Shown here piece by piece: positions 20,615-49,100 of a stretch of 64,000 nt of DNA. The stretch is from an archaeon (GTDB lineage: Archaea > Nanobdellota > Nanobdellia > Pacearchaeales > DTIR01): NCBI GenBank assembly GCA_043799715.1, contig JAZDNM010000003.1, forward strand, positions 156,903-220,902, given 5' to 3'. The notes under the pieces were generated by a model that did no database searches, was not told the origin of the DNA, and was given only the letters and a program-made list of their open reading frames with translations. The position numbers and the translations under genes were made by a program. Positions within the stretch are counted from its first letter, which is position 1; every line of letters starts with the position of its first letter.

Positions 20615-21213
20615 AAAATACCAAGAACATGGAAGAGAAGCTTATACAGATAGCAATAAAGCTCGCGAGAAGGGGAGAAGGCGGCTTGTTCATAGTTATT
20701 ACCGGAAAGAAGCCTGAATTCAGGAAGCTTGTAAAGCAGAATATCAAGCCTTTCAATATTCTTGAAGGCAAGAATGACAAATTGATTGAAAGCCTGGCAA
20801 CAATTGACGGGGCAGTTGTTGTAAACAAAGAGGGGAAAATGATTGCGTATGGAACCATGGTAAAGAGCAATATCCCTTTCAGGGGCTTCGGGACAAGGCA
20901 CGCCGCTGCATTAAGCGCTTCAAGGAATGGAAATATTTCAATTCTCAGTTCTGAAGAGGAGAGAAAAGTCAAGGTTTTCAGGAATGGAAGATACATAATG
21001 CAGCTTGATGCGCTTGAAAAAGGAATTGAAAAGAATGTTCCAAGGATAAGCACATTTTTTGAGAGTGTCGGAGCTGGTTTTCTTGGGACTCTGGGAGCAG
21101 CCACCTTGCTGCCTGGATTGGGCATAACAGTGATTCCGGGAGTTATAATATTTGGGAGTTCTTATTATGCAATCAAGTCCCTGATTGACAAATTAGGAGG
21201 CAAGAAAAAATAA
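20611..21213 (+). CDS. DisA_N/DAC-domain protein (putative diadenylate cyclase) with C-terminal membrane segment
   Basis: Aligns by eye to CdaA-type DAC: GGLFIVI, IDGAVVV (DGA motif), GFGTRHAAALSAS (RHR motif present as RHA), LSSEEERKVKVFRNG. C-terminal hydrophobic GAGFLGTLGAATLLPGLGITVIPGVIIFGSSYY. Start overlaps the upstream stop (ATGA). Confidence 0.7.
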   Translation: MKNTKNMEEKLIQIAIKLARRGEGGLFIVITGKKPEFRKLVKQNIKPFNILEGKNDKLIESLATIDGAVVVNKEGKMIAYGTMVKSNIPFRGFGTRHAAALSASRNGNISILSSEEERKVKVFRNGRYIMQLDALEKGIEKNVPRISTFFESVGAGFLGTLGAATLLPGLGITVIPGVIIFGSSYYAIKSLIDKLGGKKK

Positions 21214-21214
21214 G

Positions 21215-22804
21215 ATGACAAAAGAGAACATAAATTACAGCAAGAAGGTAATGCAGATGTTCATGAACCCGAAGAATGTAGGGGAAATAAAAAACGCTGA
21301 TGGCATTGGAAAGGTTGGAAATCCTGTATGCCTATTGCCGCAAGAGAAAATTCATTCCAATCCTGAATTGAAGAGCATTAATACTTTAAACAAAAAAGAT
21401 TTAGTTATGAGTCATCTAGGACACGATAAAATTATAGACATTTTTATTAGGAAATATAATGGGCGTGTAATAGAACTTAAAAATAAACTTGGGAGTATCA
21501 ATTTAACACCAGAGCATCTTGTCTTGGCTATTAAAATCCCCAGAGGTGATAGATTTAAGAGAAATAAAGGAAAAAAAACTCTAACTCCATCTTGGTATCA
21601 TGCTACAGATTTGAAAAAAAATGATATAGTGCTCTATCCTATTTTAAAAGAGGTCAAGGATATTGAATCTATCAAAATAGATATTTCAAGGGCGAAATAT
21701 GATTTTAGGAGTAAAAAAATTCCAAATAAAATTCCTATTAATGCTGATTTTCTGAGATTGGCAGGATATTATTTATCAGAAGGCGGTATATCCCTAAAAC
21801 CATGTAAAACATTTATTAACTTTACATTTAATATTAATGAAAAAGAATTCGTAGAGGATATCAGAAATATTAGCAGAAAAATATTTGATTTGGATATAAA
21901 AGTTAAGGAAATTCCTGAAAGGAAAACAATTCAGGTATTTATTTACAATGCTATTTTAGCAAGATTTTTTTATGATTTGTTTGGAAAAGGAGCAAAAAAT
22001 AAAAAGATTCCTAATTTTATGATATTTTTACCTGTTGAAAAGCAAAAAGAATTGCTTATTGGACTTTGGAGAGGGGATGGATATATCAATGTTAATAGGC
22101 CTGGTGCTAGAGCAGGTTTTGCTACTATTTCTTTTCAGTTGGCTCATCAAGTTAAACTAATATTATTAAGACAAAAAATAATTCCTTCAATATATACTGA
22201 TAAAGAACGGATAAGGGAAGGAGTTAAGCATGAAGAGAGTTACAGAATACATGTTGGACAGAGAGAATCTTTGAGAAAATTATGTTTTTTGTTTGGTTTA
22301 ACCTATATCCCAAAATCATACCCTTCTGTTGATAATTGGTTTGATAACAATTATTTGTATACCCCAATCACACAAATCAAAAATCGAAAGTTTTCTGGTG
22401 AGGTTTATAATTTAGAAATAGAAAAAGCACATTCCTTTACAACTGAAGGATTTTGCCTTCATAATTGCGGGGATTTGATGTTTATATATATAAAAGTTGG
22501 CAAGAAGAAAGGCAAAGAAGTTATTGACGATGTTAAGTTTAAGACATTCGGCTGCGCTGCAGCAATCGCAACTTCATCAATGATAACTGAACTTGCAAAA
22601 GGCAAAACTCTTGAAGAAGCAATGAAAATAACAAGAGGCAATGTTGCGGATTCGCTTGAAGGCCTGCCTCCAATAAAAATGCACTGCTCAAACCTTGCTG
22701 CAGATGCGCTGCATGAGGCAATAATTGATTATTACAAAAAGCAGGGAAGAAAAGATATGCTTGCCAGATATGCTTCACTTAAACCGCATGAGCACGAACA
22801 TTAA
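21215..22804 (+). CDS. iscU: IscU/NifU-type Fe-S scaffold interrupted by an intein (529-aa precursor, predicted 150-aa mature protein)
   Basis: N-extein YSKKVMQMFMNPKNVGEI..GKVGNPV. C-extein CGDLMFIYIKV..FKTFGCAAAIATSS..PIKMHCSNLAADALHEAI. The three cluster Cys and the invariant PxCGD are restored after removing residues 39-417. Confidence 0.9.
   Translation: MTKENINYSKKVMQMFMNPKNVGEIKNADGIGKVGNPVCLLPQEKIHSNPELKSINTLNKKDLVMSHLGHDKIIDIFIRKYNGRVIELKNKLGSINLTPEHLVLAIKIPRGDRFKRNKGKKTLTPSWYHATDLKKNDIVLYPILKEVKDIESIKIDISRAKYDFRSKKIPNKIPINADFLRLAGYYLSEGGISLKPCKTFINFTFNINEKEFVEDIRNISRKIFDLDIKVKEIPERKTIQVFIYNAILARFFYDLFGKGAKNKKIPNFMIFLPVEKQKELLIGLWRGDGYINVNRPGARAGFATISFQLAHQVKLILLRQKIIPSIYTDKERIREGVKHEESYRIHVGQRESLRKLCFLFGLTYIPKSYPSVDNWFDNNYLYTPITQIKNRKFSGEVYNLEIEKAHSFTTEGFCLHNCGDLMFIYIKVGKKKGKEVIDDVKFKTFGCAAAIATSSMITELAKGKTLEEAMKITRGNVADSLEGLPPIKMHCSNLAADALHEAIIDYYKKQGRKDMLARYASLKPHEHEH
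21329..22465 (+). mobile_element. Intein with LAGLIDADG homing-endonuclease domain (379 codons) inside iscU
   Basis: Cys1 (CLLPQEK), block B LTPEH, LAGLIDADG motifs LAGYYLSEGG and LLIGLWRGDGY, block F/G VYNLEIEKAHSF..GFCLHN, followed by +1 Cys of CGD. Confidence 0.85.
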
Positions 22805-29915: not shown

Positions 29916-30044
29916 GGACTCGTAGCTCAGCTTGGTAGAGCACCTGACTCTTAGAGCTTTCTCTTTCAAAAGAGAAACTTCGGAAAGAGAAATTAAATTG
30001 CTCGGGATATCAGGGTGTCGCGCGTTCAAATCGCGTCGAGTCCA
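29916..30044 (+). tRNA. tRNA-Lys(CUU) with ~55-nt intron at the canonical 37/38 position
   Basis: Acceptor GGACUCG/CGAGUCC, D arm GCUC..GAGC. Anticodon stem CCUGA/UCAGG with loop CU-CUU-A interrupted 29954-30008. T arm GCGCG-UUCAAAU-CGCGU, discriminator A. No encoded CCA. Splice borders approximate. Confidence 0.85.
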
Positions 30045-30920: not shown

Positions 30921-33900
30921 ATGGCAGAACTTCAAAATCAGGGGCATAATGAAATTGACAGGGAGCATTTGCTCGTCAAAAAATATCTTTCGCAGCATTC
31001 TCTTGTTGAGTCAAACATAACTTCTTTCAATAATTTTGTTGAAATACGCATGCAGGAGATTGTTAATGAGATAAGGGAATCCCTGCCTCAGGAGGATATA
31101 GAGATAAAATTAGGGAGGATAAAGCTGAAAGAGCCTTCAATAATAGAAGCTGACGGCTCTGTCAGGAGAATCTCGCCAACAGAGGCAAGGCTCAGAAGCC
31201 TGACATATTCAGCTCCTGTCATGCTTGAGATAACAATCAAGCAGGGTAATCAGACAGAGCAGCAGGATGTTGAGATAGGAAAAATTCCGGTTATAGTAAA
31301 GAGCAAATACTGCAATCTTTCAATAAAAAACAAGGTAGCAAAAAATAAGGACGAGACAGAGGATTACAATGACCCTTTAGACACCGGCGGATATTTCATA
31401 GTCAACGGCAATGAAAGAGTCATGGTAATGATTGAGGACTTGGCCCCGAACCAGTTCTTTATAGAGAAAAACGCAGCAGAAAAAATGATGCTCAGGATTT
31501 TCTCGCAGAGAGGCGCATACAGAATCCCAATCCAGCTAGACGAGGGCTCTGACGGAATAATAAATGTCTCATTCTCCAGGTTCAAGAATATCCCTATTGT
31601 CGTTATGCTCAAGGCTCTTGGGATGCTGAGAGATTCAGATATCTCCAAGTACATAGGAAAAGAGTCTGATGCATTGATTGTCAACCTTTACGAGTTCGCG
31701 AATATACAGAGCTCACAGGATGCAATGATGTTCATAGCTGAAAAAACAGCAATGCAGGGCACAAAAAAAGAAGTTATGGACAGGATAAAAGACAGAATAG
31801 ACCAGTATTTCCTGCCTCATGTAGGCACAAAGCAGGAGAATAGGGCAGGCAAAGCAATTACTCTATGCAAGCTCGCAAGGCAGTTCCTGACTGCAAAGGC
31901 AAATCCTGATTTTATCACAGACAAGGACCATTATGCAAACAAGCGTGTAAGGCTCTCGGGAGATTTATTGGCAGACCTTTTCAGGGTTAATCTATCAGCA
32001 TTGATAAGGGATATACAGCACAACTTGCAAAGAACACTGAGAAGAAAAAAAGCATACTCAATAAAAACACTCGCAAAATCAACATTATTCTCCCACAGGA
32101 TTGAATCTGCAATCGCAACAGGCAGCTGGATAGGCGAAAGAACAGGAGTAACGCAGAACATGGACAAGACAAATTATCTCGCTGTACTTTCACAGCTGCA
32201 GAGAGTCTCAAGCCTGCTCCCAGGAGAACAGGAGAATTTCCTTGCAAGAACACTTCATCCGACGCATTACGGAAGGTTCTGCCCTGTTGAAACACCTGAA
32301 GGAACTGAAATAGGGCTCAGAAAGAACCTTGCACTGCTTGCAAGAATAAGCACCGCAGTCGAACTTGACGAGAAGGAATTCTTAAAATTCATAGAGGGCA
32401 AAGGGCTTCAGAATTATGAAAAGGAGATTCAGGGGGAAAATGTATTTGATGTTTTTTACAACGGGCAGTTTATAGGATTTGTTAAAGAGCCTGAAAAATT
32501 TGTTTCTGCAATGAGAGAATCAAGAAGAACAGGGAAACTGCCTATTGAATTAAGCATACGCCTTGACAATACAAATGCTCTCGTTGTAATATCAACTGAA
32601 ACAGGCAGGGTTCTCAGGCCTCTGATTATCGCAAAGAACAGCGCAAGCATGCTTGCAGAGGAGCACATGGAAATGCTAAGAAACAACACACTCTCATGGA
32701 ACGACCTATTGAGCAATGGTGTTATTGAGTATCTCGACGCATCTGAAGAGGAGAATGCCCTTGTTGCACTGAATGAATCAGAGATTACAGCAGAGCACAC
32801 TCACCTTGAAGCTGACAAGATTGATTTGTTAGGACTGGTTACAAGCCTTGTTCCATTCGGCAATTACAATCAGGCATCAAGGCTTAATCGTGGAAGCAAG
32901 ACGCAAAAACAGGCGCTTGGATTGTACTCAGCAAATTTCTTATGCAAGATTGACACAGATGTTAATCTATTGCACTATCCGCAAAAGCCGATTGTAAGGA
33001 GCTTTATCTATGATACATTAAATATCTATCCGGCAGGACAGAATGTGGTTGTTGCTATCCTCACATATGAGGGATATAACCTTGAAGATGCTATTGTCAT
33101 AAACAAGGGCTCAATTGAAAGAGGCTTGGGAAGAAGCACTTACTTCAGGCCTTACAAAACAACCGAGCTTCATTATACAGGCGGGCTTTCAGATGAAATA
33201 TGCGTGCCAAGCAAAGATACAAGTGGATACAGGACAGAAACAAGCTACAGATTCCTTGAAGACGACGGCATTGCATACCCTGAAGCCAACCTCGACGAGA
33301 ATGAGGTAGTTATAGGCAAGACATCACCTCCAAAATTTCTGAGCGAAGCAGGGGAAATCGCAATAAAAGCAAGAAAAGAATCAAGCATGGCAATCAGGTC
33401 GGAAGAAAAAGGGACAGTTGATGCTGTTTTTGTAACTGCAGATGCAGAAGGCAACAGGATTGTACAAGTCAGGACAAGAAATGAAAGAATTCCTGAAATA
33501 GGCGACAAATTCTCAACTGCGCACGGGCAGAAAGGAGTAATAGGGGCGATAATCCCTGAAGAAGACATGCCCTTCACATCAAAAGGCGTAAGGCCTGACA
33601 TAATATTCAATCCTCACGGCATCCCAAGCAGAATGACCGTTGGTTATCTTCTCGAAATGATGTCAGGCAAGGCAGGAAGCCTGGCAGGCAAGAGCATTGA
33701 CGGAACAATGTTCTCTGGAACAAGCATATCTGAACTTGAGAAAGAGCTACAGAGTTCCGGGTTCAGATATGACGGAAAAGAAACAATGTTCAACGGCATA
33801 ACAGGAGAGATGTACGGAGTCAAAATTTACATAGGCGACATGTACTACTTAAGATTGAAATATATGGTTTCAAACAAGATGCATGCAAGAGCCCTTGGAA

Positions 33901-34232
33901 AAGTTACATTGCTGACAAGGCAGCCGATAGAAGGCAGAAGCAAGGGCGGGGCATTAAGGCTGGGAGAAATGGAGCAGCAGGCGCTTGTTGCGCACGGAGC
34001 ATCATTGCTGCTGAAAGAAAGATATGATTCAGACAAGGTTACTGTCCATGTATGCATAAAATGCGGGATTATGGCAATAAAAGACAACATTCACAATAAG
34101 ATTTACTGCCCTATATGCCAAAATTCTCCTGTTGAGCCTGTGCAGATTTCATACGCATTCAAACTGCTTGTTGATGAGTTGATTTCACTGCACATCCTTC
34201 CAAGATTTGAATTAAAAAACAAGTACGAATAA
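30921..34232 (+). CDS. rpoB: RNA polymerase subunit Rpo2 (RpoB), unsplit
   Basis: 1103 aa. GDKFSTAHGQKGV, LRLGEMEQQAL, C-terminal Zn ribbon CIKCG..CPIC. Confidence 0.95.
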   Translation: MAELQNQGHNEIDREHLLVKKYLSQHSLVESNITSFNNFVEIRMQEIVNEIRESLPQEDIEIKLGRIKLKEPSIIEADGSVRRISPTEARLRSLTYSAPVMLEITIKQGNQTEQQDVEIGKIPVIVKSKYCNLSIKNKVAKNKDETEDYNDPLDTGGYFIVNGNERVMVMIEDLAPNQFFIEKNAAEKMMLRIFSQRGAYRIPIQLDEGSDGIINVSFSRFKNIPIVVMLKALGMLRDSDISKYIGKESDALIVNLYEFANIQSSQDAMMFIAEKTAMQGTKKEVMDRIKDRIDQYFLPHVGTKQENRAGKAITLCKLARQFLTAKANPDFITDKDHYANKRVRLSGDLLADLFRVNLSALIRDIQHNLQRTLRRKKAYSIKTLAKSTLFSHRIESAIATGSWIGERTGVTQNMDKTNYLAVLSQLQRVSSLLPGEQENFLARTLHPTHYGRFCPVETPEGTEIGLRKNLALLARISTAVELDEKEFLKFIEGKGLQNYEKEIQGENVFDVFYNGQFIGFVKEPEKFVSAMRESRRTGKLPIELSIRLDNTNALVVISTETGRVLRPLIIAKNSASMLAEEHMEMLRNNTLSWNDLLSNGVIEYLDASEEENALVALNESEITAEHTHLEADKIDLLGLVTSLVPFGNYNQASRLNRGSKTQKQALGLYSANFLCKIDTDVNLLHYPQKPIVRSFIYDTLNIYPAGQNVVVAILTYEGYNLEDAIVINKGSIERGLGRSTYFRPYKTTELHYTGGLSDEICVPSKDTSGYRTETSYRFLEDDGIAYPEANLDENEVVIGKTSPPKFLSEAGEIAIKARKESSMAIRSEEKGTVDAVFVTADAEGNRIVQVRTRNERIPEIGDKFSTAHGQKGVIGAIIPEEDMPFTSKGVRPDIIFNPHGIPSRMTVGYLLEMMSGKAGSLAGKSIDGTMFSGTSISELEKELQSSGFRYDGKETMFNGITGEMYGVKIYIGDMYYLRLKYMVSNKMHARALGKVTLLTRQPIEGRSKGGALRLGEMEQQALVAHGASLLLKERYDSDKVTVHVCIKCGIMAIKDNIHNKIYCPICQNSPVEPVQISYAFKLLVDELISLHILPRFELKNKYE

Positions 34233-34238
34233 AAACAA

Positions 34239-37200
34239 ATGACAGAAGTAATAAGAAAACAAATTAAGAGCATAGGATTTGGTTTGATAAGTCCTGAAGA
34301 AATAAAGAAAATAGGCGTTGCAAAAATTGTCACGCCTGAACTTTATGACATGGATGGCTATCCTGTAGATGGCGGCTTGATGGATCTGAAGCTCGGTGCA
34401 ATCGACCCGGGAGTCAGATGCAGGACTTGCGGAGGCAGGCTGAAAGAATGCCTCGGGCACTTTGGTTTTATTGAACTGGCAAGGCCTCTTATGCATATAA
34501 AATATATCAGCATAATCGAAAGAGTCTTGAGAAGCACATGCCACTCATGCAGCAGGATTCTCCTTGCCCAAAAAGATATTGAGAAATACTCCGCTTTAAT
34601 AAGGATAAAAAAAGCAAAGGATGTAAAGAAATGCCCATATTGTAATGCAGTGCAGGAAAAAGTAAAACTTGAGAAGCCTACATCCTTCGTTGTCGGCAAG
34701 AAAAGAATATTCCCAACAGAAGTAAGGGCAAAGCTGAACAAGGTTTCTGAGGAAGATTTGAAGCTTCTTGGAATAAACCCAAAAACAGCAAAACCTGAAT
34801 GGGCTGTTTTGACTTTGCTTCTTGTGCCGCCTGTAACATCAAGGCCTTCAATAACCCTTGAAACAGGAGAAAGAAGCGAAGATGACTTGACTCATAAATT
34901 AAGTGATATAGTAAGGGCAAACCAGAGATTATGGGAGAACCTGAATGCAGGAGCGCCTGAAGTTATAATAGAAGACTTATGGGATTTGCTTCAGTATCAC
35001 GCAACAACATTTTTTGACAACTCTGTCCCGCAAATACCCCCTGCAAGGCACAGGAGCGGACAGCCGCTGAAAACAATAACTGAAAGAATAAAAGGAAAAC
35101 AGGGAAGAATAAGGCACAATCTCGCTGGCAAGAGAGTTAATTTCTCTGCAAGAAGTGTTATTTCCCCAGACCCTTCCATCCGATTAAATGAAGTAGGAAT
35201 TCCGCTTGAAACTGCAAAGATAATCACAGTTAATGAAACTGTCAACACAGTAAATATCAACTTATTAAAGAAACTTGTTCTTTCAAAAGAATATCCCGCT
35301 GCAAACTATATTGTAAGGCCTGATGGCAAGAGAAAAAGAATAACTCCTGACTTGCAGGAAGACTTGGCAGACGAGCTTGCTATAGGATATACAGTTGAAA
35401 GGCATTTAAGAGACGGAGATGTTCTCCTGTTCAACAGGCATCCTTCTCTTCATAAAATGAGCCTGATGGCACATTTTGCAAAAATACTTCCAGGCAAAAC
35501 TTTCAGGCTGCATCCTGCTGTAACATTCCCATACAACGCTGATTTTGATGGGGATGAGATGAATATACATTCGCCGCAGACAGAAGAGGCAAGGGCTGAA
35601 GCAAAAATCCTGCTTGAAGTTAACCAGCAGATGATATCCCCAAAGAACAATACAAATGTCCTTGGATGCATTGCAGACGCAATAACAGGTAATTACCTTC
35701 TGACAAACAGAAAGTTTACAAGAGAAGAAGCATGCCAACTCCTCATTGAGGCAGGCGCGGACATTAGTGAATTGAAGCATGCAACAGACGGCAAGGATGT
35801 TTTTTCAGCATTGATTCCGAAGATAGATTTTGCAAGGAGAACGAGAGCTTGCATGGGGCAGGACTGCAAGTACTATGACTCAAAATCCTCAGGAGAAGAA
35901 TGCTACAGGAACTGCAAGAAAGAGAACTGCCCTGATAATTCTTATTTGAAGATAGACAACGGCAAGCTTGTGTCAGGGATAATTGACAGCCACGCTTTTG
36001 GCGTTGAGGACAGCGTAATGCTCAAGATGCTTGATGTTAATGTTGGGAGAAACAAAACAATAGATGTTTTAAGGAAAATTTTCAGCCTTGGAAGTTTGTA
36101 TCTTTCAAGAAACGGATTCACAATATCCCTCGAAGATATCAAAGTAACTGATTCCATAAAAGAAATCACACAAAACACAATAAGGGAAGCTGAACGCAAG
36201 GTCAAGGAGATTATTGATTCTTATTCAAACAAGAGCCTTGAGCCTGTGCCTGGAAAAACACGCGAAGAAACAAGGGAAATCAAGATATTGCAAGTCTTAA
36301 ATGAAGTAAGAAGCAAAGTTGGAAATATTGTAAAGAGGGAAATGCCAAAAAACAACCCAACAAATACAATGATCCTGTCAGGAGCAGGGGGAAACACGGT
36401 TTATGTAACCCAGATGGCATGCTTGGTAGGGCAGCAGGCATTATGGGGCAAGAGAATAAATTTGGGATACAGCAACAGGACACTTTCATTTTTCAAGAAC
36501 AATGACTTGTCCCCTGTGGCAGGCGGATTTATCTATTCATCATTCCTCGAGGGATTAAAGCCCTATGAATTTTTCTTTGGGGCGATGACAGGAAGGGACT
36601 CGCTTATGGACACTGCATTAAGAACACCGCGTTCAGGATATTTATACAGAAGACTTGCCAATGCGCTTCAGGATTTGAAAATAGAATACGACGGGACAGT
36701 AAGGGACGCTTCAGGCAATGTTATACAGTTTGCATACGGCGATGACGGCAAGGACACAAGCAGGCTGCATCTTCCCAACAATAAGATTGCCCCTGCAGAA
36801 GCAATCGGCATAATTACAGCGCAGTCATTCGGAGAGCCATCAACACAGATGACCTTGAATGTTTTCCATTTTGCAGGAATTTCAGAAATGCAGGTTACAC
36901 TGGGTTTGCCGCGTTTAATTGAGATATTTGACGCAAGAAAGAAGCCATCCACTCCAGCCATGGAAATCCATTTGGACTCTGATTTCAACAATGAGGAATC
37001 TGCGAGGCTTACTGCCGAGAAGATAAAGGAAATAATGCTTAAGGACATTGCAGAATCAGTGACTGTAAATTTCACAAGCAAGAGAATAGATGTACTTCTT
37101 GACAAGAAGGCGCTTAAGCAAACACATGCATCAGCAGAAACAATCGTAAGGAGACTAAATGAGAAGAATTTCAAAGTCAAGATTGATGGGGACAGTATAG

Positions 37201-37784
37201 TAATGAAAGCAGAGGAACTTGATTTCAAGGGATTATACAAGCTAAAGGAAAAAATGAAGAACATAATTGTTTCAGGGATTGAAGGAATTAAGCAAGTCCT
37301 GCCTGTAAAGAGAGATGAGAGTTATGCAATCCTGACAGCAGGCTCAAATTTAAGGGAGATATTAGAAGTAAAAGGCGTTAATGCAGGCAAAACCACAACA
37401 AATGACCTTTTTGAAGTTGCTGAAGTCCTTGGCATAGAGGCTGCGAGGCAGTCAATAATAAACGAAACATTGAAAGTTATAGAATTTCAGGGGCTTGATA
37501 TAGATGAGAGGCATGTCAGGCTTGTCGCTGATGCAATGACTTCTTCAGGAGAGATAAAAGGCACAACAAGAATAGGCATAATAAACCAGAAGACCTCAAT
37601 TCTTGCAAGAGCATCTTTTGAAACACCAATAAAGCATTTCGTGAATGCAACATTAAAAAATCAGAGAGATGAGTTAGCCAGTGTTATTGAAAATGTAATT
37701 CTAAACCAGCCTGTGCCTGTAGGCACTGGCTTGCCGGGCTTGCTTGTTAAGATAACAGGCAAGTTAAATAAGGCGCAAGAGTAG
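34239..37784 (+). CDS. rpoA: RNA polymerase subunit Rpo1 encoded as one ORF (A' and A'' portions fused), 1181 aa
   Basis: N-terminal Zn motif CRTCGG..C.GHFG. Catalytic NADFDGDEMN (35535-35564). Bridge helix GAMTGRDSLMDTALRTPRSGYLYRRL. Then, in the same frame, the A''-type trigger loop AQSFGEPSTQMTLNVFHFAG (from about 36831) and the A'' C-terminal region. Confidence 0.9.
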   Translation: MTEVIRKQIKSIGFGLISPEEIKKIGVAKIVTPELYDMDGYPVDGGLMDLKLGAIDPGVRCRTCGGRLKECLGHFGFIELARPLMHIKYISIIERVLRSTCHSCSRILLAQKDIEKYSALIRIKKAKDVKKCPYCNAVQEKVKLEKPTSFVVGKKRIFPTEVRAKLNKVSEEDLKLLGINPKTAKPEWAVLTLLLVPPVTSRPSITLETGERSEDDLTHKLSDIVRANQRLWENLNAGAPEVIIEDLWDLLQYHATTFFDNSVPQIPPARHRSGQPLKTITERIKGKQGRIRHNLAGKRVNFSARSVISPDPSIRLNEVGIPLETAKIITVNETVNTVNINLLKKLVLSKEYPAANYIVRPDGKRKRITPDLQEDLADELAIGYTVERHLRDGDVLLFNRHPSLHKMSLMAHFAKILPGKTFRLHPAVTFPYNADFDGDEMNIHSPQTEEARAEAKILLEVNQQMISPKNNTNVLGCIADAITGNYLLTNRKFTREEACQLLIEAGADISELKHATDGKDVFSALIPKIDFARRTRACMGQDCKYYDSKSSGEECYRNCKKENCPDNSYLKIDNGKLVSGIIDSHAFGVEDSVMLKMLDVNVGRNKTIDVLRKIFSLGSLYLSRNGFTISLEDIKVTDSIKEITQNTIREAERKVKEIIDSYSNKSLEPVPGKTREETREIKILQVLNEVRSKVGNIVKREMPKNNPTNTMILSGAGGNTVYVTQMACLVGQQALWGKRINLGYSNRTLSFFKNNDLSPVAGGFIYSSFLEGLKPYEFFFGAMTGRDSLMDTALRTPRSGYLYRRLANALQDLKIEYDGTVRDASGNVIQFAYGDDGKDTSRLHLPNNKIAPAEAIGIITAQSFGEPSTQMTLNVFHFAGISEMQVTLGLPRLIEIFDARKKPSTPAMEIHLDSDFNNEESARLTAEKIKEIMLKDIAESVTVNFTSKRIDVLLDKKALKQTHASAETIVRRLNEKNFKVKIDGDSIVMKAEELDFKGLYKLKEKMKNIIVSGIEGIKQVLPVKRDESYAILTAGSNLREILEVKGVNAGKTTTNDLFEVAEVLGIEAARQSIINETLKVIEFQGLDIDERHVRLVADAMTSSGEIKGTTRIGIINQKTSILARASFETPIKHFVNATLKNQRDELASVIENVILNQPVPVGTGLPGLLVKITGKLNKAQE

Positions 37785-40592: not shown

Positions 40593-41192
40593 ATGGAAAA
40601 AAGAGCGCAGTTTTATATTATTATAACAGCAATAATAACTGTCGTTGTCACAGGGCTGATAACGATAGTTAATTATGCACTTGTCAAGCCAGAGCCAATA
40701 CAGTTTTATGATTTGTCAAAACAGCTCGAAAGGGAAGTCACAAGAGTTATAGATTATGGAGTTTACACAGAGGGGGATACTGCATCATATATCGAGGATT
40801 TTATCTCCAATTTCCTTGAATACAGCCATGAGAAAGACCCGAATCTTGGATTGATTTATATTTATGGCAACGCAACAGCGCTTGTTGTTGCGAATTACGG
40901 CAAGGACGATGCAGGCATTGTAACTGAATTGAACAAGACAATGCTCTATGGTTCTGAGGCAGAATCAGTAAGCCAGATAAGAATGGATATAGGGGGGCAG
41001 CAGGTTGGGAAAAAAATTATAGAGGAAAGGGGCATTTTCGGGAACATAAAAACAATGCTCGGCCCAAGCAGAATTGTCAGGGTTAACATCTCAAATACTA
41101 TATATGATTTTGATTTGAGGGGGCAGCAGTATTTTTTTGCGATAGTAAAAAGCGAAAAGGAGGGCGAGACATATTACAGCCTGATTAAGTAA
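40593..41192 (+). CDS. Type IV pilin-like protein (class III signal peptide, Gln at +1)
   Basis: MEKRA/QFYIIITAIITVVVTGLITIV. First gene of the pilin cluster. TATA-like box at 40548-40556. Confidence 0.55.
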   Translation: MEKRAQFYIIITAIITVVVTGLITIVNYALVKPEPIQFYDLSKQLEREVTRVIDYGVYTEGDTASYIEDFISNFLEYSHEKDPNLGLIYIYGNATALVVANYGKDDAGIVTELNKTMLYGSEAESVSQIRMDIGGQQVGKKIIEERGIFGNIKTMLGPSRIVRVNISNTIYDFDLRGQQYFFAIVKSEKEGETYYSLIK

Positions 41193-41198
41193 TTAAAA

Positions 41199-41687
41199 AT
41201 GAGAAAGATAACTTCAAAAAAAGGAATAACAGAGTTGATTGCATATGTGCTTCTTATAAGCATGGCAATAGCCCTGAGCATTCTTGTTTATAATTGGCTG
41301 AGGTTTTATGTAGTGCCCAGCGAATCAAAGGCGTGCCCAGGAGGAGTAAGCCTGATATTGCAGGAGTATTCATGCAGTGGAGGTAATATAAATATAACAG
41401 TTCGGAACAAGGGGCTTTTCAATATTGATGGTTACTTAATAAAGATAAACAACAAGGTTGACTCCTCAGGCAAGCCAGAAGGGCTTCCTGTTAATCTCCT
41501 TGCATCCGTGTCATTGCAAAGTTCTTTGAACCCAAGCGATGCGCATTCAGGCAGCTATTCTTATGAGGAACTTTATGGAAGAGTAGCTGAAATAGAGATA
41601 GAGCCATTCAGGAAGCAGGACAACAAAATAATTTATTGTGATGAATCAATAACAAGGCAGGTTGTGCGCTCAGTCGATTGTTTATAG
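41199..41687 (+). CDS. Archaeal type IV pilin-like protein
   Basis: MRKITSKKG/ITELIAYVLLISMAIALSILV. Confidence 0.6.
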   Translation: MRKITSKKGITELIAYVLLISMAIALSILVYNWLRFYVVPSESKACPGGVSLILQEYSCSGGNINITVRNKGLFNIDGYLIKINNKVDSSGKPEGLPVNLLASVSLQSSLNPSDAHSGSYSYEELYGRVAEIEIEPFRKQDNKIIYCDESITRQVVRSVDCL

Positions 41688-41725
41688 CAAGATTTAAAAC
41701 AGAAAAAGATTTTTAACAACAGAAA

Positions 41726-42190
41726 ATGCGAGAGAAAAGAGGAGTTACGCCGATAATAGCAACTGTTCTTCTTATAGGCCTAACTGTTGCGCTGGCAATA
41801 ATTATCTTCGCATGGACAAGGGGTTTTATCACAGAGCAGATTGAAAAATTCGGAAAGTCAGTTGACCAGGCTTGCGAGGAATTAAGCTATGACGCTGAGA
41901 TTGTTCCAGCAGGAGCCAATGTATATGATTTATACCTTTCCAACAGGGGCAATATCCCTATTTATGCTGTGGATATAAAGAAGATAGGTCCTGGAAAATC
42001 TCAGATAGACAGAAGAACAATAACAATAGCCGAGGGGCAGTCAGTAAAGGAAGCTATAACTTTGGAAAGATCAGTTTATGATACTGTTCTTGTTATGCCT
42101 GTTATACTCGGAAATGCCAGGGGAGCAGCCAATAAAAAGGCTTATGCGTGCCCTCAGCAGTATAGCAAGCAGATTAAACTGCCATTATAA
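41726..42190 (+). CDS. Archaeal type IV pilin (DUF1628-type N-terminus)
   Basis: MREKRG/VTPIIATVLLIGLTVALAIIIF. Confidence 0.7.
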   Translation: MREKRGVTPIIATVLLIGLTVALAIIIFAWTRGFITEQIEKFGKSVDQACEELSYDAEIVPAGANVYDLYLSNRGNIPIYAVDIKKIGPGKSQIDRRTITIAEGQSVKEAITLERSVYDTVLVMPVILGNARGAANKKAYACPQQYSKQIKLPL

Positions 42191-42250
42191 AAAGAAAGGT
42201 TTTTAAGTAAGAATGCCAGTCCTATAATAAAGAAAAGGAGGTTACATTAG

Positions 42251-42766
42251 ATGTTCTACAAAAACGAGAGGGCAGTGTCTTCCCTTGTTGCGACAGTTTT
42301 GCTTATTCTGATTACAGTGGCTGCAGTCGGGATTATATGGGGGGCTATCATGCCAATGCTCAACAGTGCTATGGAAATAGGACAAGCATGCCTAAATGCA
42401 AGGCTGACAATAGACACAACATCGGGCTATACCTGCTACAAAACAACAACCAATGAAGTTATGATTATGGTAGGCAGGGGGGCAGAAGAATTTTATCTTG
42501 CAGGAATGAGCCTTATTATAAGCGGCGGCGGACAGTCAAAAACATTCCAATTCAAGCAGGGAGCAGCCATCGGTGGCGTGAAAATGATAGATGGCACAAC
42601 GACAATACAGCTGCCAAGTACAAATGAAGAAAGAACTTATCTGCTCTTCATTGGAACAAACTTAACATCAGTTGAAGAGGCAAAGGTTGCTCCAATAGCA
42701 AGAGTGGGCAAGACAGACAGAGCCTGCGATGTTTCATCAAAAGTGCCTTTAACTATCTGCAGTTAA
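42251..42766 (+). CDS. Archaeal type IV pilin (DUF1628-type N-terminus)
   Basis: MFYKNERA/VSSLVATVLLILITVAAVGII. Confidence 0.65.
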   Translation: MFYKNERAVSSLVATVLLILITVAAVGIIWGAIMPMLNSAMEIGQACLNARLTIDTTSGYTCYKTTTNEVMIMVGRGAEEFYLAGMSLIISGGGQSKTFQFKQGAAIGGVKMIDGTTTIQLPSTNEERTYLLFIGTNLTSVEEAKVAPIARVGKTDRACDVSSKVPLTICS

Positions 42767-42794
42767 TCTTTCATTTTTATTTTTCATTGCTTAA

Positions 42795-43331
42795 TTGAAA
42801 ATGCAAAAGAAAGCCCAAGTATGGATAGAATCAGTTTTGTATACTCTAATAGGGTTAGCTATAATCGGGCTTCTTCTTGCTGTGATGCGCCCAAAAATCA
42901 GCCAGACACAGGACCAGTTTGTTATCCAGCAGACTATCCGTGCACTGAATGAGGTTGACAACAAAATTCTTGAGATAAAACAGGCAACAGGCAACAGGCG
43001 TATAATTGATTTTCAATTATCCAAAGGGGTTCTGACAGTCCTATCTGCCGATGACAGAATAGAATGGAAGCTTGCAGGCAGCACTTACATGTACTCTGAA
43101 CCAGGCTCAACAGCATGGATAAGCAACATAAAAGTCCTGACAGAGAAAGTGGCTGACAAATATGATATAACACTCATTCTGGATTACAAAAATAAGAATG
43201 ACATTCTTGTAGACTCTCAGCAGGTATCGAGGACAATGCAGCCTGCAAAAACACCTTATGTTCTCACTTTGGAAAACATTGGGCAGAATACCCAGAGCAA
43301 GCTGATCAAGATTGACTTCTCAATCCAGTAA
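42795..43331 (+). CDS. Type IV pilin-like protein (Gln at +1, Glu at +5)
   Basis: MKMQKKA/QVWIESVLYTLIGLAIIGLLLAV. Confidence 0.55.
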   Translation: MKMQKKAQVWIESVLYTLIGLAIIGLLLAVMRPKISQTQDQFVIQQTIRALNEVDNKILEIKQATGNRRIIDFQLSKGVLTVLSADDRIEWKLAGSTYMYSEPGSTAWISNIKVLTEKVADKYDITLILDYKNKNDILVDSQQVSRTMQPAKTPYVLTLENIGQNTQSKLIKIDFSIQ

Positions 43332-43411: not shown

Positions 43412-43592
43412 GCCCGGATGGCCCAATGGCAAGGCGCAAGGTTGCTAAAAGCCTTTCTTAACACAGAGGAAAGTAAAGCTTTCCTATGTCCCGAAAATCT
43501 GAAAAGATTTTCGCGAAGAAAGCTTTGGGAAAGAAACCACAAAAACCTTGTTTCTCGCAAGAGATTTGCAGGTTCGATTCCTGCTCCGGGCG
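43412..43592 (+). tRNA. tRNA-Ser(GCU), class II, with ~97-nt intron at 37/38
   Basis: Acceptor GCCCGGA/UCCGGGC. Anticodon stem CAAGG/CCUUG with loop UU-GCU-A interrupted about 43448-43544. Long variable arm UCUC-GCAA-GAGA. T arm GCAGG-UUCGAUU-CCUGC, discriminator G. Confidence 0.85.
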
Positions 43593-44319: not shown

Positions 44320-44395
44320 AGCGGGGTGGAGCAGCCTGGTTAGCTCGCGAGGCCCATAACCTCGAGGTCGCATGGTTCAAATCCTGCCCCCGCTA
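44320..44395 (+). tRNA. Initiator tRNA-Met(CAU), archaeal type (A1:U72)
   Basis: AGCGGGG/CCCCGCU acceptor with A1:U72. D arm GAGC..GCUC. Anticodon stem CGAGG/CCUCG, loop CC-CAU-AA. T arm needs a bulged U (GCA-U-GG UUCAAAU CCUGC). Confidence 0.75.
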
Positions 44396-44404
44396 CTTTT
44401 TCAA

Positions 44405-45082
44405 ATGAATAAATTGATTCTCGGAATAGATGATGCAGGACGCGGTCCTGTAATCGGTCCGATGGTTCTTGCAGGGGCAATTATTGACAAGAAGGATGAG
44501 AAGAAGCTCAAATTGCTTGGCGTCAAGGATTCAAAGCAAGTTTCTGCAAGCAAGAGGGAGATTCTTATTGAAGAGATAAAAAAAACTGCAATTGACTGGA
44601 AAGTGGAGATAATAACCCCTGCTGAAATTGACGGCAGGTCGGGAGCAGGACTAAACCTTAATCAGCTTGAGGCTGTGAAGGCTGCGGCTATCGTGAATAA
44701 TCTGAATAACGGCAAGGAGAGCATGGATGTTGTGGTGGACTGCCCTTCAAATAATATCCCAAAATGGCAGGAATACCTTCTGCAGCATATTAATAACAAA
44801 AAAAATCTTGTTTTCAAAATTGAGCACAAGGCAGATATAAATCATGTTGCATGTTCAGCGGCATCAATAATCGCAAAAGTTACTCGGGATTCTGAAATTG
44901 AGAAGATAAAAAAGAATTTAGGCGTGGACTTTGGCTCTGGTTATCCTTCTGACCCTGTAACAATTAAATTCCTGCATGAACATGGCAAGAAATACAGAAA
45001 AGAGGGCATATTCAGGGAGACATGGCAGACGTGGCAGGACGCAAAGGGCAAGAAAGCGCAGAAAAAGATAGACGAGTTCTAA
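44405..45082 (+). CDS. rnhB: Ribonuclease HII
   Basis: LGIDDAGRGPVIGPMVLAG and GVKDSKQV motifs. Start moved from 44372 (inside the tRNA) to the Met at 44405. Confidence 0.9.
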   Translation: MNKLILGIDDAGRGPVIGPMVLAGAIIDKKDEKKLKLLGVKDSKQVSASKREILIEEIKKTAIDWKVEIITPAEIDGRSGAGLNLNQLEAVKAAAIVNNLNNGKESMDVVVDCPSNNIPKWQEYLLQHINNKKNLVFKIEHKADINHVACSAASIIAKVTRDSEIEKIKKNLGVDFGSGYPSDPVTIKFLHEHGKKYRKEGIFRETWQTWQDAKGKKAQKKIDEF

Positions 45083-46151: not shown

Positions 46152-46241
46152 ATAAGGAATCATTATTTTGGATTTTATAAAAGCTTAGCTCAGGATTTTC
46201 CCAGGAAAAATGTTTAAAAATCTCTTATGCTGGGATTTATC

Positions 46242-49100
46242 ATGCCATTTGTAAAAAAGCTGGTGATGTCTGGCTTCAAGTCTTTTGCAAAGCCCACAGA
46301 GATTCTGTTTGACAAGACAATGAACACTATTGTCGGCCCGAACGGCTCTGGCAAGAGCAATGTCTCTGATGCAATCTGCTTTGTTCTTGGAAGATTAAGC
46401 ATAAAGTCAATAAGAGCAGAAAAAGCTGCAAACCTGATTTATAATGGGGGAAAAGAGAACAGACCTTCTGATGAAGCCAGAGTTGAAATGATTTTTGACA
46501 ATTCTGACAAGGTTCTTTCAGGCAGCGAGGAAATGAAAATAGCAAGGATTGTAAAAAGGGATGGGCAGAGCATTTACAAAATTGATGGAAAGACAAAAAC
46601 AAGGCAGGAAGTTCTTGACTTGCTTGCGCAGGCAGGCATCGACCCATATGGATTTAATATAATCCTGCAGGGCGAGATATCAAGATTTGTTGAGATGAGA
46701 AACGATGAGAGAAGAGTAATTCTTGAAGACATAGCAGGAATAAGCATATATGAAACAAGAAAGGAAAAATCACTGAAAGAGCTTGAAAGAACAGATGAGA
46801 GACTCAAGGAAGTCAATACTATCCTGAGAGAAAGAACAGCATATTTGAAAAATCTTGAGGAGGACCGACAGCAGGCTCTGAAATTCAAGAAGCTTGAAGA
46901 GACCGTAAAAAGATGCAAGGCATCAATTCTGAGAAAGAAAATTGAGGAAAGAACAAAAGAAAGAAAGGAGGTTGATGAATCAATTTCTAAGGAAGCTGGA
47001 GGCATTGAAAAGACAAAAAGCTATATCTTGAAGCTTGAAGAGGAAATCAAAAAACTAAACAGCAGGATTGAGGAGATTAACGCAAAGATACAAAAATCTT
47101 CAGGAGTTGAGCAGACATCCCTAACTGAGAATATTACAGAACTTAAAGCTGAAATTGCAGGGCTAAGTGTCAGAAAAGAGAATTACCAGAACCAGCTGGA
47201 CTCAATCGCAAGAAGAGAAGAGGAGCTTGAAAAAAGCATCTCTGATTTGCAGAAAGAAACCGATGAGATGAGAAAAAGTAAGGGTAAGTCAGTCAAGCAG
47301 GAAGTTGAGAGTAAGAAAAGAACTCTTGAAGGGCTTGAGGAAAGAAAGGCGAAGTTCTATTCACTGAAATCATCTTTGAATGTAGCAAATGAAAGATATG
47401 AAGACAAGAAAAAAGAGCTGCAGAAAGCAGAGCATGAATATGAATTCACTTTCAGGAAGATAGAAGAAACTGAAGCCCTGCTTAAATTTAAGGATAATCT
47501 TGAAAAATGCAGGGAAAGGCTTTCAGCGCTTAGAAAGGAAATTGAGAATGCAAAGAAAAACCAGCAGGAAGCCGAACTGAAGATTCTGGAATCTGAAAAA
47601 GAAATCGCTGCATGCTCAAGGCAGATTTCTGACACAGAAAATGTCAAAAAACATGTTGCAGAGCTGGATATATGCCCCCTGTGCAAAACAAAAATAACCT
47701 CCGAGCATATTGAAAATATTGATAAAGAGGCAAATGAAAAAATTGCAAAGCTTAAACAGGAAATCGACAAATCAAAAAAGCAGAAAGAGGATTTCTGGGG
47801 CAGAAAAGAGGATTCAATAGCAATTATCAAGGAAACTGGCGCTGAAATTGAAGAAAGAGAGAAGGATATTTTGAGGCTTGAGACACTTGAAGATAAGAAA
47901 TCCATGCTCAGGGATTTTGATGAGGCGAGAAAAAGAATTTCAAATGAGATAAATGAACTGGAAAGCAAAAGAAAACAGACACAAAAGTCAATTGCTGAAT
48001 TAGAGGATATTGAGCAGAAATACGAGCTGCTCAAGCTCGATGTTGACGAGCTGAAAAGGCATGAAGAGGTGGATGTAGGAACTGAAATCTCCTACAAGTT
48101 AAGGGAGATGGAAAGAGTAAAGGTGATAATAAGGCAGATTTCAGCCCAGGCAGGCGAGCTTGAAAAAGAGGTTCTTGAAATTGGCAGGGAGCTTGACAGA
48201 AAGCAGAAAGAGGCAAGGGACAAAGAGAGGCAGGAGCAGGAAATACAGGTAAGATACAAGAGAATGTTTGAAGAGAAGAATAATCTGCAGGATAAAGTAA
48301 GGATGTTTGAAACTGATATGCTAAAGAAGCAGAATGATGCAAGATTTACAGAGGAGAGAACAAACAACTTTAGGATAAAAAAAGCAGAGGTGAATGCGCA
48401 GATTGAAACACTTGAAATGGAATTCAAGGAATTTGGCGATGTTGAAGTGATAAAAGCATCGGTTGAAGAGCTTCAGGCAAGGCTTGAGAGTTCGCAAAGG
48501 TCCCTTGATGTCATCGGCAGCGTCAATCTCAAGGCTCTTGAGGTTTATGACAGCATAAAAAAAGATTATGAGGAAATAGCTCTGAAAGTTGAGCTGCTTG
48601 ACAAGGAGAAGCAGGAGATACTCAAAATTATTGAGGAAATAGACAAGAAAAAGAAGAACAACTTCATGAAAACTCTCAATACAATAAACCAGCTCTTCTC
48701 TGATAATTTCTCAAGGCTGAGCACAAAGGGGCAGGCATGGCTTGAGCTTGAAAATCCATCAGATGTTTTTGCAGGCGGCTTGGATATTGTTGTCCGGATT
48801 GCAAAAGGCAAGTACATGGATATAAACTCGCTTTCAGGAGGGGAGCAGGTTCTCGTTGCGCTGTCGCTTATATTCGCAATACAAGAGCACAAGCCGTACT
48901 GCTTCTATATCTTTGATGAGATTGATGCAGCATTAGACAAGAGAAACTCAGAGAGACTGGCAGGATTGCTCATATCCTATACAAAGAAATCCCAGTGCAT
49001 AGTCATAACCCACAATGATTCAATCATCTCAAATTCAGCAACAATTTATGGTGTCAGCATGCAGGACGGAGTAAGCAAGATTATCAGCCTGAAATTGTGA
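46242..49100 (+). CDS. smc: SMC-type ATPase with a central CPxC zinc-hook-like motif in place of a hinge
   Basis: SMC head: GFKSF, GPNGSGKSNVSDAICFVLG, ILQGEISRFVEM..ERRVILEDIAGI, LSGGEQVLVALSLIFAI, FYIFDEIDAALD, VITHND. Uninterrupted K/E-rich heptad sequence in between, with LDICPLCKTKITSEHI at residue 483 of 957. ORF opens at 46227 and the Met at 46242 is the likely start. Confidence 0.85.
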   Translation: MPFVKKLVMSGFKSFAKPTEILFDKTMNTIVGPNGSGKSNVSDAICFVLGRLSIKSIRAEKAANLIYNGGKENRPSDEARVEMIFDNSDKVLSGSEEMKIARIVKRDGQSIYKIDGKTKTRQEVLDLLAQAGIDPYGFNIILQGEISRFVEMRNDERRVILEDIAGISIYETRKEKSLKELERTDERLKEVNTILRERTAYLKNLEEDRQQALKFKKLEETVKRCKASILRKKIEERTKERKEVDESISKEAGGIEKTKSYILKLEEEIKKLNSRIEEINAKIQKSSGVEQTSLTENITELKAEIAGLSVRKENYQNQLDSIARREEELEKSISDLQKETDEMRKSKGKSVKQEVESKKRTLEGLEERKAKFYSLKSSLNVANERYEDKKKELQKAEHEYEFTFRKIEETEALLKFKDNLEKCRERLSALRKEIENAKKNQQEAELKILESEKEIAACSRQISDTENVKKHVAELDICPLCKTKITSEHIENIDKEANEKIAKLKQEIDKSKKQKEDFWGRKEDSIAIIKETGAEIEEREKDILRLETLEDKKSMLRDFDEARKRISNEINELESKRKQTQKSIAELEDIEQKYELLKLDVDELKRHEEVDVGTEISYKLREMERVKVIIRQISAQAGELEKEVLEIGRELDRKQKEARDKERQEQEIQVRYKRMFEEKNNLQDKVRMFETDMLKKQNDARFTEERTNNFRIKKAEVNAQIETLEMEFKEFGDVEVIKASVEELQARLESSQRSLDVIGSVNLKALEVYDSIKKDYEEIALKVELLDKEKQEILKIIEEIDKKKKNNFMKTLNTINQLFSDNFSRLSTKGQAWLELENPSDVFAGGLDIVVRIAKGKYMDINSLSGGEQVLVALSLIFAIQEHKPYCFYIFDEIDAALDKRNSERLAGLLISYTKKSQCIVITHNDSIISNSATIYGVSMQDGVSKIISLKL

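Follow-up and report, generated by a model that had tools for sequence, protein, structure and literature searches.

Reviews divide the SMC/Rad50 superfamily by dimerisation module, assigning a hinge and a kleisin to the SMC proteins and a zinc hook and a nuclease to the relatives of Rad50 (e.g. PMC10586767). The gene smc, located in a 64-kb stretch of archaeal DNA (GenBank assembly GCA_043799715.1, contig JAZDNM010000003.1, positions 156,903 to 220,902 of the forward strand; the whole stretch is referred to as the window), raises the question of whether both halves of this division can meet in a single protein. An earlier note on this DNA had described the gene product as SMC-type heads joined by a coiled coil with a Rad50-like CPxC motif at its apex, and had suggested that it may define a distinct SMC-related family. 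Our analysis suggests, with a probability of about 0.8, that smc encodes the condensin-type SMC ATPase of a DPANN archaeon resembling Pacearchaeota, in which the hinge is replaced by a Rad50-type zinc hook and the arms are near full length. As part of the same reading, the protein, referred to below as the hook SMC, would descend from a canonical hinge-bearing archaeal Smc whose hinge of ~200 residues gave way to a hook of ~16 residues.

The open reading frame (ORF) of smc extends from 46227 to 49100 on the plus strand and encodes 957 amino acids (aa), while translation from the second in-frame ATG (46242, M6) yields 952 aa. Since P0001, an identical protein at NCBI ('MAG: chromosome segregation SMC family protein [archaeon]'; MAG, metagenome-assembled genome), has 952 aa and all homologues begin with MP.IKKL, the 46242 start is preferred, and by sequence it is almost certainly the true one. 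A TTTAAAAA box was recognised by reading the sequence ~25 nucleotides (nt) upstream of this start. The length of 957 aa given in the earlier note corresponds to the upstream ATG at 46227, whereas its own start at 46242 gives 952 aa. Residue numbers in this text refer to the 952-aa form. All motifs quoted in that note were located in the ORF, including GPNGSGKS, ILQGEI, LSGGEQ, FYIFDEIDAALD, GVSMQDGVSKIISLKL and LDICPLCKTKITSEHI, and the midpoint CPLC lies exactly at nt 47673-47684, which makes residue 483 of 957 equivalent to residue 478 of 952.

ATPase heads, arms and locus

The ATPase heads of the protein were compared with family models and with known structures. Pfam SMC_N matched with 5e-49 over residues 8-950, and the NCBIfam models SMC_prok_A and SMC_prok_B scored 539.5 and 514.6 bits, respectively, as compared with 115 bits for ASRP, 100 bits for the best Rad50 model (PRK03918) and 33 bits for arcadin-4. 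The best-scoring stretch in NCBIfam begins in the N-terminal head, includes the ascending arm and ends at residue ~477, and the hinge part of the model remains unmatched. In a sequence search of the PDB, the top matches were all Smc heads (Pyrococcus 5xei 1.8e-104, 5xns 1e-94 and 4i99 1e-84), followed by SMC2, SMC3, SMC1 and SMC4 of condensin and cohesin, with Rad50 heads reaching just ~1e-12. A full-length AlphaFold2 model, built on a 111-sequence alignment with a mean pLDDT (predicted local distance difference test) of 75.5, was compared with Smc heads using Foldseek and gave a target-normalised TM (template modelling) score of 0.89-0.91 to 4i99. The complete set of head motifs, namely Walker A, Q-loop, LSGG signature, Walker B/D-loop and H-loop, is present, and the nearest hinge-bearing archaeal SMCs (1100-1190 aa) are 37-42% identical to the hook SMC. 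The view of the earlier note that the heads are SMC-like rather than Rad50-like is thus borne out both by the scores (SMC_prok_A 539 bits, Rad50 at most 100 bits) and by the TM of ~0.9 to Smc heads.

A zinc hook and the lack of a hinge are also found in Rad50/SbcC and in the ASRPs (ClsN/coalescin, Sph), and the 115 bits of the ASRP model and the 100 bits of the Rad50 model PRK03918 might be taken to mean that a member of one of these known zinc-hook families has been misread as an SMC. However, these scores are far under the respective cut-offs of 300 and 700, the ASRP match covers only the coiled coil at residues 302-665, and the heads fit SMC models and structures better than Rad50 by ~90 orders of magnitude. 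Moreover, neither Mre11 nor SbcD appeared among the ORFs scanned across the window, and the arms of ~300 residues are collinear with those of hinge SMCs. This explanation is effectively refuted. As individual candidates, Rad50/SbcC was ruled out by the head scores (100 bits, cut-off 700) and by the lack of Mre11 in the window, and ASRP/ClsN by 114.9 bits against a cut-off of 300, with the best stretch restricted to the coiled coil (302-665). An SMC-like defence ATPase was rejected because the PADLOC scores (mad3 169.9 bits, LmuB 70.7 bits) are far under the SMC score and the neighbouring genes are housekeeping genes.

The arms of the hook SMC were aligned with those of the hinge SMC P0161 (1155 aa). 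Residues 3-467 align to residues 3-466 of P0161 and residues 466-952 to residues 669-1155; both arms are collinear, and the ~200 hinge residues of P0161 are replaced by an apex of ~16 residues. Each strand of the predicted coiled coil comprises ~300 residues (AlphaFold2 helices 167-474 and 487-826). Among 128 hook proteins, the distance from Walker A to CPxC is 447 residues (5-95% range 446-449) and that from CPxC to LSGG is 386 residues (385-389), and the sequence conservation of the arms is only ~50-70%. This narrow range of arm lengths fits the view that a tuned arm length and geometry matter, and not the fold of the dimerisation domain (PMC5344682). In the predicted structure, the paired breaks at residues 343-355 and 602-615 may represent an elbow-like discontinuity.

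The position of the heads among archaeal SMCs was determined with a neighbour-joining tree of 121 proteins based on 327 head-only columns. In this tree, 29 hook representatives and four short relatives lacking the hook form one clade with a bootstrap value of 92/100, and the sister of this clade is a group of 24 hinge SMCs. The cluster that contains P0145, a member of this sister group, bears the name 'chromosome segregation protein SMC [Candidatus Woesearchaeota archaeon]'. The tree places the heads beside hinge SMCs, and a position inside Rad50/SbcC, which the earlier note had named as a refutation, is contradicted by the scores. Most of the named hook proteins carry Pacearchaeota or Nanoarchaeota labels, and NCBI taxonomy places the Pacearchaeota within the DPANN kingdom Nanobdellati. 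Five hook-type loci were found in a contig scan with query-specific peptides, and their NCBI labels are a mixture of 'Pacearchaeota' and 'Woesearchaeota'; therefore, no clean taxonomic boundary is claimed.

The genes flanking smc were compared between hook-type and hinge-type loci. RNase HII is encoded directly upstream of smc in 7/7 hook loci examined, and in the hinge locus of a Woesearchaeota MAG (L004) it is found three genes upstream of smc. An immunoglobulin (Ig)-like membrane protein of ~400 aa is encoded downstream of smc in five hook loci and in L004. Because the hook SMC shares the RNase HII-smc neighbourhood with the hinge SMC, it is read as an SMC orthologue, and our results support that the hook SMCs are a clade inside canonical archaeal SMC which occupies the orthologous locus and in which the hinge has been replaced by a hook. 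The suggestion of a distinct SMC-related family is consequently not upheld, since head tree, synteny and collinear arms all place the protein inside canonical archaeal SMC. A functional link between RNase HII and smc is possible. Overall, RNase HII was seen directly upstream of smc at all hook-type and hook-less loci checked (the window, L001, L002, L006, L008-L010, L034 and L035).

Partner genes were sought with Pfam scans of ~50 ORFs, including nearly all non-overlapping ORFs of at least 110 aa, and with local ScpA, ScpB and SMC-head profiles run on every ORF of at least 60 aa in the window. The hidden Markov models (HMMs) for ScpA and ScpB were built from smc-scpA-scpB operons identified in Thermoplasmata loci. 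Neither mre11, nurA, herA, scpA, scpB nor a second SMC-like gene was found in the 64-kb window with Pfam and the local profiles, and the observation of the earlier note that none of the first five is adjacent to smc was confirmed by the same Pfam scans and ScpA/ScpB profiles. An ORF of 1181 aa, a length typical of an SMC, was considered as a second SMC and rejected, as it encodes RNA polymerase subunit A (34239-37784). Likewise, no Mre11/SbcD or HerA/NurA was detected in the flanks of L001 and L002, and no ScpA/ScpB, hinge SMC or Rad50/Mre11 within ~10 kb of other hook genes, as far as the contigs extend. The ScpA/ScpB HMMs gave nothing better than E = 0.07 in the window and in hook-type, Woesearchaeota and Micrarchaeota loci (~20 kb per genome).

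The lack of ScpA/ScpB nearby would also be expected if the protein were a paralogue with a separate job in repair or defence, encoded beside a canonical hinge SMC-ScpAB located elsewhere in the genome. Zinc hooks are typical of the repair and defence relatives Rad50, LmuB and ASRP (PMC10586767, PMC9389158), and with PADLOC, defence ATPases of the SMC-like kind matched weakly (mad3 170 bits, LmuB 71 bits), which points in the same direction. However, these PADLOC scores are far under the SMC score, and no nuclease or effector gene is found next to the hook smc among the scanned neighbours. The surroundings are those of a housekeeping gene, with two tRNAs, RNase HII, a small ferredoxin, Trm5/Tyw2, FEN1, PolB, Kae1 and RNA polymerase, and the RNase HII-smc-Ig-like protein neighbourhood is the same as that of the hinge SMC in the Woesearchaeota MAG. 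Furthermore, the clade has hinge SMCs as its sister group, at 37-42% identity, and forms no divergent long branch. A paralogue is thus highly improbable, and an orthologue of the canonical SMC is the preferred reading.

The apex and the missing hinge

To characterise the apex, homologues were collected by a search of 5.8 billion proteins, from which the 120 best were taken, and by an exhaustive search of 50%-identity representatives. All 120 best homologues, which are 48-100% identical to the hook SMC and mostly 945-955 aa in length, contain exactly one CxxC, which is always CP[LVM]C and located at the midpoint. The hinge-free, full-length 50%-identity representatives (946-1023 aa), down to ~40% identity, all display C-P-x-C followed by x3-[ILMV]-[TSD]-x-x-[HY]. 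A single midpoint CP[LVTMKFI]C is present in 152/152 hook-type relatives (CPLC 136, CPVC 6, CPTC 4, CPMC 2, CPKC 2, CPFC 1, CPIC 1), and the CPxC motif singled out by the earlier note is thus kept among the orthologues. In the same set, position 8 after the second cysteine is occupied by His in 146 and by Tyr in four proteins. For a protein of this composition, CPxC would be expected ~1e-5 times by chance at a distance of at most 10 residues from the midpoint. Averaged over alignment columns, conservation reaches 0.86 at residues 475-490 and 0.82-0.84 in the heads, against 0.52-0.57 in the distal arms on either side of the hook; judged from these sequence data, the apex is an island of constraint conserved like the heads.

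When the 59-aa apex was searched in isolation, Pfam Rad50_zn_hook matched with 25.6 bits, as compared with a gathering threshold of 24.3, and the same model matched 24/24 isolated apex fragments from diverse family members with a best E of 1.3e-6. HMMER pairs CPLCKTKITSEH with the P. furiosus Rad50 hook CPVCGRELTDEH, at a non-significant E of 0.38. AlphaFold2 predicts residues 393-566 with a pLDDT of 93.4 as a helix, a 12-residue apex and a second helix, and in the full-length model continuous helices at 420-474 and 487-585 are linked by the same 12-residue apex. Among the PDB matches of the hook fragment in Foldseek, the Rad50 zinc hook 1l8d_A ranks first, and with 5gox_A, 7zqy_B and 1l8d_B, four of the eight best matches are Rad50 zinc hooks. 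The resemblance to the Rad50 hook pointed out in the earlier note is therefore recovered by the Rad50_zn_hook matches in 24/24 fragments, by a predicted hairpin with a pLDDT of 93 and by 1L8D as the top Foldseek match. Both the sequence and the predicted fold mark the apex as a hook of the Rad50 type.

The hinge was searched for with two types of profile. No Pfam match to SMC_hinge PF06470 was obtained in the hook SMC, and PF06470 is absent from the precomputed Pfam lists of the 120 closest homologues, whereas it is present in a related Woesearchaeota SMC. A lineage-specific hinge profile, generated with jackhmmer and seeded with the hinge of a related hinge-type SMC, recognised 100 hinge-type proteins but 0/152 hook-type proteins. 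In this comparison, hinge and hook modules were never found together in one protein. That no globular hinge is visible, as the earlier note had remarked, agrees with the failure of both the Pfam and the lineage-specific profile to detect one.

Four 50%-identity clusters in or beside the hook clade display SMC heads but neither a hinge nor a CxxC (P0138, 801 aa; P0139, 804 aa; P0141, 779 aa; P0144, 781 aa). These hook-less relatives are labelled Pacearchaeota, and several independent assemblies contain them (loci L033-L035). They lack the distal arm equivalent to residues ~395-585 of the query, including the hook, and the missing segment begins ~40 residues beyond the 343-355 break. As with the hook gene, RNase HII immediately precedes the gene of P0144. 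Because the hook-less relatives fall in or beside the hook clade and P0144 is found at the RNase HII locus, the apex module of this orthologue appears to be evolutionarily labile. The hook-less relatives also support the idea that the hinge is dispensable, with the caution that the hook, too, may be non-essential.

Further variation in length was observed among the relatives. An intein with LAGLIDADG and intein-splicing domains (~520-540 aa) follows the Walker A motif GPNGSGK(S) in P0029, P0058, P0081, P0107, P0111 and P0117; in P0058 the insertion site is after GPNGSGK, and the intein-bearing hook SMCs are 1476-1496 aa long. P0126, whose putative intein would likewise follow GPNGSGKS, and P0131 (~1480 aa) have the same extra N-terminal length as the intein-bearing hook SMCs, and hinge-type relatives of ~1700 aa seem to contain inserts, too. 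Hinge SMCs with much shorter arms occur in discrete length classes among the 150 best representatives, with P0225, P0229, P0231, P0246 and P0256 at 810-838 aa and P0147, P0166 and P0214 at 943-963 aa.

Several of our results weigh against a hook-bearing SMC orthologue. At the level of the heads, the NCBIfam equivalog cut-offs were missed (539.5 versus 729.4 bits for TIGR02169 and 514.6 versus 567.35 bits for TIGR02168), which in the case of TIGR02169 is expected because there is no hinge. The neighbour-joining tree is distance-based, restricted to the heads and without an outgroup. No ScpA/ScpB was found in the window or in ~110 kb around seven other hook genes; since the hinge smc genes of Woesearchaeota and Micrarchaeota likewise lack adjacent ScpAB, adjacency is not expected in this region of the tree. 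At the level of the apex, Pfam Rad50_zn_hook scored a sub-threshold 18 bits on the whole protein. The profile of the 59-aa apex retrieved 1l8d from the PDB only with E = 0.38, amid RING fingers and designed helical bundles, a match that is not significant and thus unusable as evidence alone. The E values of the hook fragment in Foldseek are at least 0.03, likewise not significant alone, as expected for a helical hairpin, and the AlphaFold2 predictions are of monomers only. Finally, the four hook-less clusters of 779-804 aa in or beside the hook clade imply that an apex dimeriser may not be strictly required in this lineage.

Some of these points can be read as indicating that the CPxC apex is not an intermolecular hook at all. 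It could then be a conserved turn with a structural role, a dock for another protein or an intramolecular or redox (disulfide) site, and dimerisation would occur by arm-arm contacts or head engagement only. The monomeric predictions, the similarities to Rad50 hooks in Foldseek and the PDB profile search that are not significant alone, and the same-clade relatives of ~780-800 aa without hook or hinge are all compatible with such an apex, and the near-invariant His located 8 residues after the second cysteine is a conceivable third ligand. However, the antiparallel coiled coil bears at its tip exactly two cysteines, arranged as C-P-x-C, the downstream [ILMV]-[TS]-x-x-H agrees with CPVCGRELTDEH of P. 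furiosus Rad50, and Rad50_zn_hook matches 24/24 fragments. Moreover, a tetrahedral zinc site is impossible with the two cysteines of one chain, and the apex is as conserved as the ATPase motifs. We regard a non-hook apex as improbable and retain the Rad50-type hook as the best explanation.

For the hook SMC, we infer zinc binding, homodimerisation through the hook, a condensin-like function and a kleisin partner. Each protomer would fold back into a long antiparallel coiled coil with Cys478 and Cys481 at its tip. Two protomers would share one Zn2+ via four cysteines, two from each chain, giving a constitutive tail-to-tail homodimer such as the hinge provides in other SMCs; an intermolecular site is proposed because two cysteines per chain cannot complete a tetrahedral one. 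The intact heads would engage and disengage with ATP, resulting in the entrapment of chromosomal DNA and translocation on it. A precedent is given by the B. subtilis Smc in which the hinge was exchanged for the P. furiosus Rad50 zinc hook, termed Smc(Zh), as this chimera supported normal growth and arm alignment (PMC5344682). By analogy, it shows that a hook architecture can support chromosome segregation.

A more far-reaching version of this scenario is that a whole Pacearchaeota-type DPANN lineage relies on the zinc-hook SMC as its sole SMC, that its genomes encode no hinge at all and perhaps no ScpAB that could be recognised, and that two or more changes of the apex took place at the one orthologous locus, one replacing the hinge by the hook and one leading to neither in the proteins of ~780-800 aa. 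We consider this version conceivable, although somewhat short of probable. If true, it would provide natural proof that the hinge, for which roles in DNA binding and as a DNA gate have been proposed, is dispensable for SMC function, and that the constraint lies on the geometry of the arms.

Feature map and other genes of the window

The features of smc and its conserved upstream neighbour are listed in Table 1.

Table 1. Positions in the window of the features of the smc gene and of the upstream RNase HII gene
Feature	Position	Strand	Basis
smc, SMC ATPase with putative zinc hook replacing the hinge, 952 aa	46242..49100	+	Pfam, NCBIfam and PDB matches; identity to P0001
N-terminal ATPase head half, residues 1-166	46242..46739	+	PDB Smc heads align to 6-252
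Walker A GPNGSGKS	46335-46358	+	sequence motif
Conserved KSIRA arginine region	46404-46427	+	sequence motif
Q-loop ILQGEI	46662-46679	+	sequence motif
Ascending coiled-coil arm, residues 167-474	46740..47663	+	AlphaFold2 helices; collinearity with P0161
Non-helical break in ascending arm, residues 343-355	47268..47306	+	pLDDT <50 (low confidence)
Putative zinc-hook apex LDICPLCKTKITSEHI, residues 475-490	47664..47711	+	motif, Pfam, AlphaFold2, Foldseek, conservation
Cysteine pair CPLC, C478 and C481	47673-47684	+	sequence motif
Descending coiled-coil arm, residues 487-826	47700..48719	+	AlphaFold2 helices; collinearity with P0161
Break in descending arm, residues 602-615	48045..48086	+	AlphaFold2; pairs with 343-355 break
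C-terminal ATPase head half, residues 827-952	48720..49097	+	Pyrococcus Smc 3kta_B aligns to 806-957, 5.3e-39
Signature motif LSGGEQ	48831-48848	+	sequence motif
Walker B and D-loop FYIFDEIDAALD	48903-48938	+	sequence motif
H-loop VITHND	49002-49019	+	sequence motif
C-terminal strands GVSMQDGVSKIISLKL	49050-49097	+	sequence motif
RNase HII gene, conserved upstream neighbour, marker of the orthologous smc locus	44372..45082	+	neighbourhood comparison

Several other genes of the window were recorded. A plus-strand ORF of 529 aa (21215-22804) encodes an IscU/NifU-like scaffold split by an intein; LAGLIDADG_3 matched with 2.6e-13, and Intein_splicing scored 33.9 bits, just below its threshold of 35.8 bits. 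A protein with a GGDEF diguanylate-cyclase domain (5.9e-38) is encoded on the minus strand at 111-728, and one with a DisA-type diadenylate-cyclase domain (1e-11) on the plus strand at 20611-21213. The contig is otherwise of DPANN archaeal type, and among archaea GGDEF proteins are unusual. RNA polymerase subunit A is encoded by a single ORF of 1181 aa on the plus strand (34239-37784) that comprises Rpb1 domains 1-5 with no A'/A'' split, and subunit B by a single plus-strand ORF of 1103 aa (30921-34232).

Two Rfam tRNA matches on the plus strand, at 43412-43592 (181 nt) and 29916-30044 (129 nt), were missed by ARAGORN and are probably intron-containing archaeal tRNAs. Five consecutive small ORFs on the plus strand at 40593-43331 (199, 162, 154, 171 and 178 aa) have no Pfam match, and three of them are weakly similar to one another. 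At the start of several, a short run of basic residues precedes a hydrophobic helix (e.g. KRGVTPIIATVLLIGLTVAL), and by sequence these starts look like archaeal type IV pilin-like signal sequences. A gene for a MazF/PemK-type toxin (4.5e-33) is located on the minus strand at 8080-8427, and the 76-aa ORF next to it (8421-8651) could encode the antitoxin.

Comparison with known systems

In the full-text literature, with subscription-only papers outside the search, no published description of a natural zinc-hook SMC was found. Surveys of archaeal SMC diversity make no mention of a hook-bearing SMC (PMC8665677), and zinc hooks have been described for Rad50/SbcC and many LmuB proteins (PMC10586767). 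The database names of the hook proteins are generic ('chromosome segregation SMC family protein', 'AAA family ATPase'). What is new is a canonical SMC with a Rad50-type dimerisation module that is common to a whole lineage; the sequences themselves are already in the databases. Such a bona fide SMC orthologue crosses the division of the superfamily, and does so across a diverse archaeal lineage. Pipelines that define SMCs by the hinge, through hinge-seeded sets or equivalog cut-offs, will miss or under-annotate the hook SMCs. The family offers a natural test system for models in which the hinge acts as a DNA binder or DNA-entry gate, and small hinge-free SMCs are useful for structural work.

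Canonical Smc (Smc-ScpAB; Pyrococcus 5XEI, 4I99; TIGR02169) and the hook SMC are alike in head sequence and fold, motifs, arms of ~300 residues, locus and tree placement. In contrast to canonical Smc, the hook SMC lacks the hinge of ~200 aa (PF06470), is ~200 aa shorter, falls under the TIGR02169 cut-off and has no ScpAB seen nearby. With the Rad50 hook (PF04423; P. furiosus 1L8D, 6ZFF; human 5GOX) it shares an antiparallel coiled coil tipped by C-P-x-C, and its downstream [IL]-T-x-E-H agrees with CPVCGRELTDEH. It differs from Rad50 in its SMC heads, its SMC-length arms and the lack of a nearby Mre11.

The ASRPs (coalescin/ClsN, Sph1/2; Yoshinaga et al., 2022, PMC9389158; NF045487) are likewise archaeal ATPases of the superfamily with a coiled coil and a zinc-hook motif rather than a hinge. 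However, they form their own clade outside SMC in the tree of the authors (PMC9389158), whereas the heads of the hook SMC are canonical SMC heads and the ASRP model reaches 115 bits against a cut-off of 300, in the coiled coil only. 'Hinge-less' SMC variants without a CXXC have been reported from marine Actinobacteria (PMC12153180). They share SMC heads and the lack of a hinge with the hook SMC, but are bacterial and without CXXC, and are nearer to the hook-less relatives of ~780-800 aa than to the hook SMC.

The same architecture, SMC heads and arms with a Rad50-type hook, is found in the engineered B. subtilis Smc(Zh) (Burmann et al., 2017, PMC5344682). The function of this chimera depended on the correct arm length, and it was used to argue that what counts is the length and geometry of the arms, the fold of the hinge being irrelevant (PMC5344682). 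While Smc(Zh) is a bacterial laboratory construct, the hook SMC is natural, comes from DPANN archaea and is old enough to have diverged to ~40% identity. The hook SMC would be a natural counterpart of the Smc(Zh) chimera.

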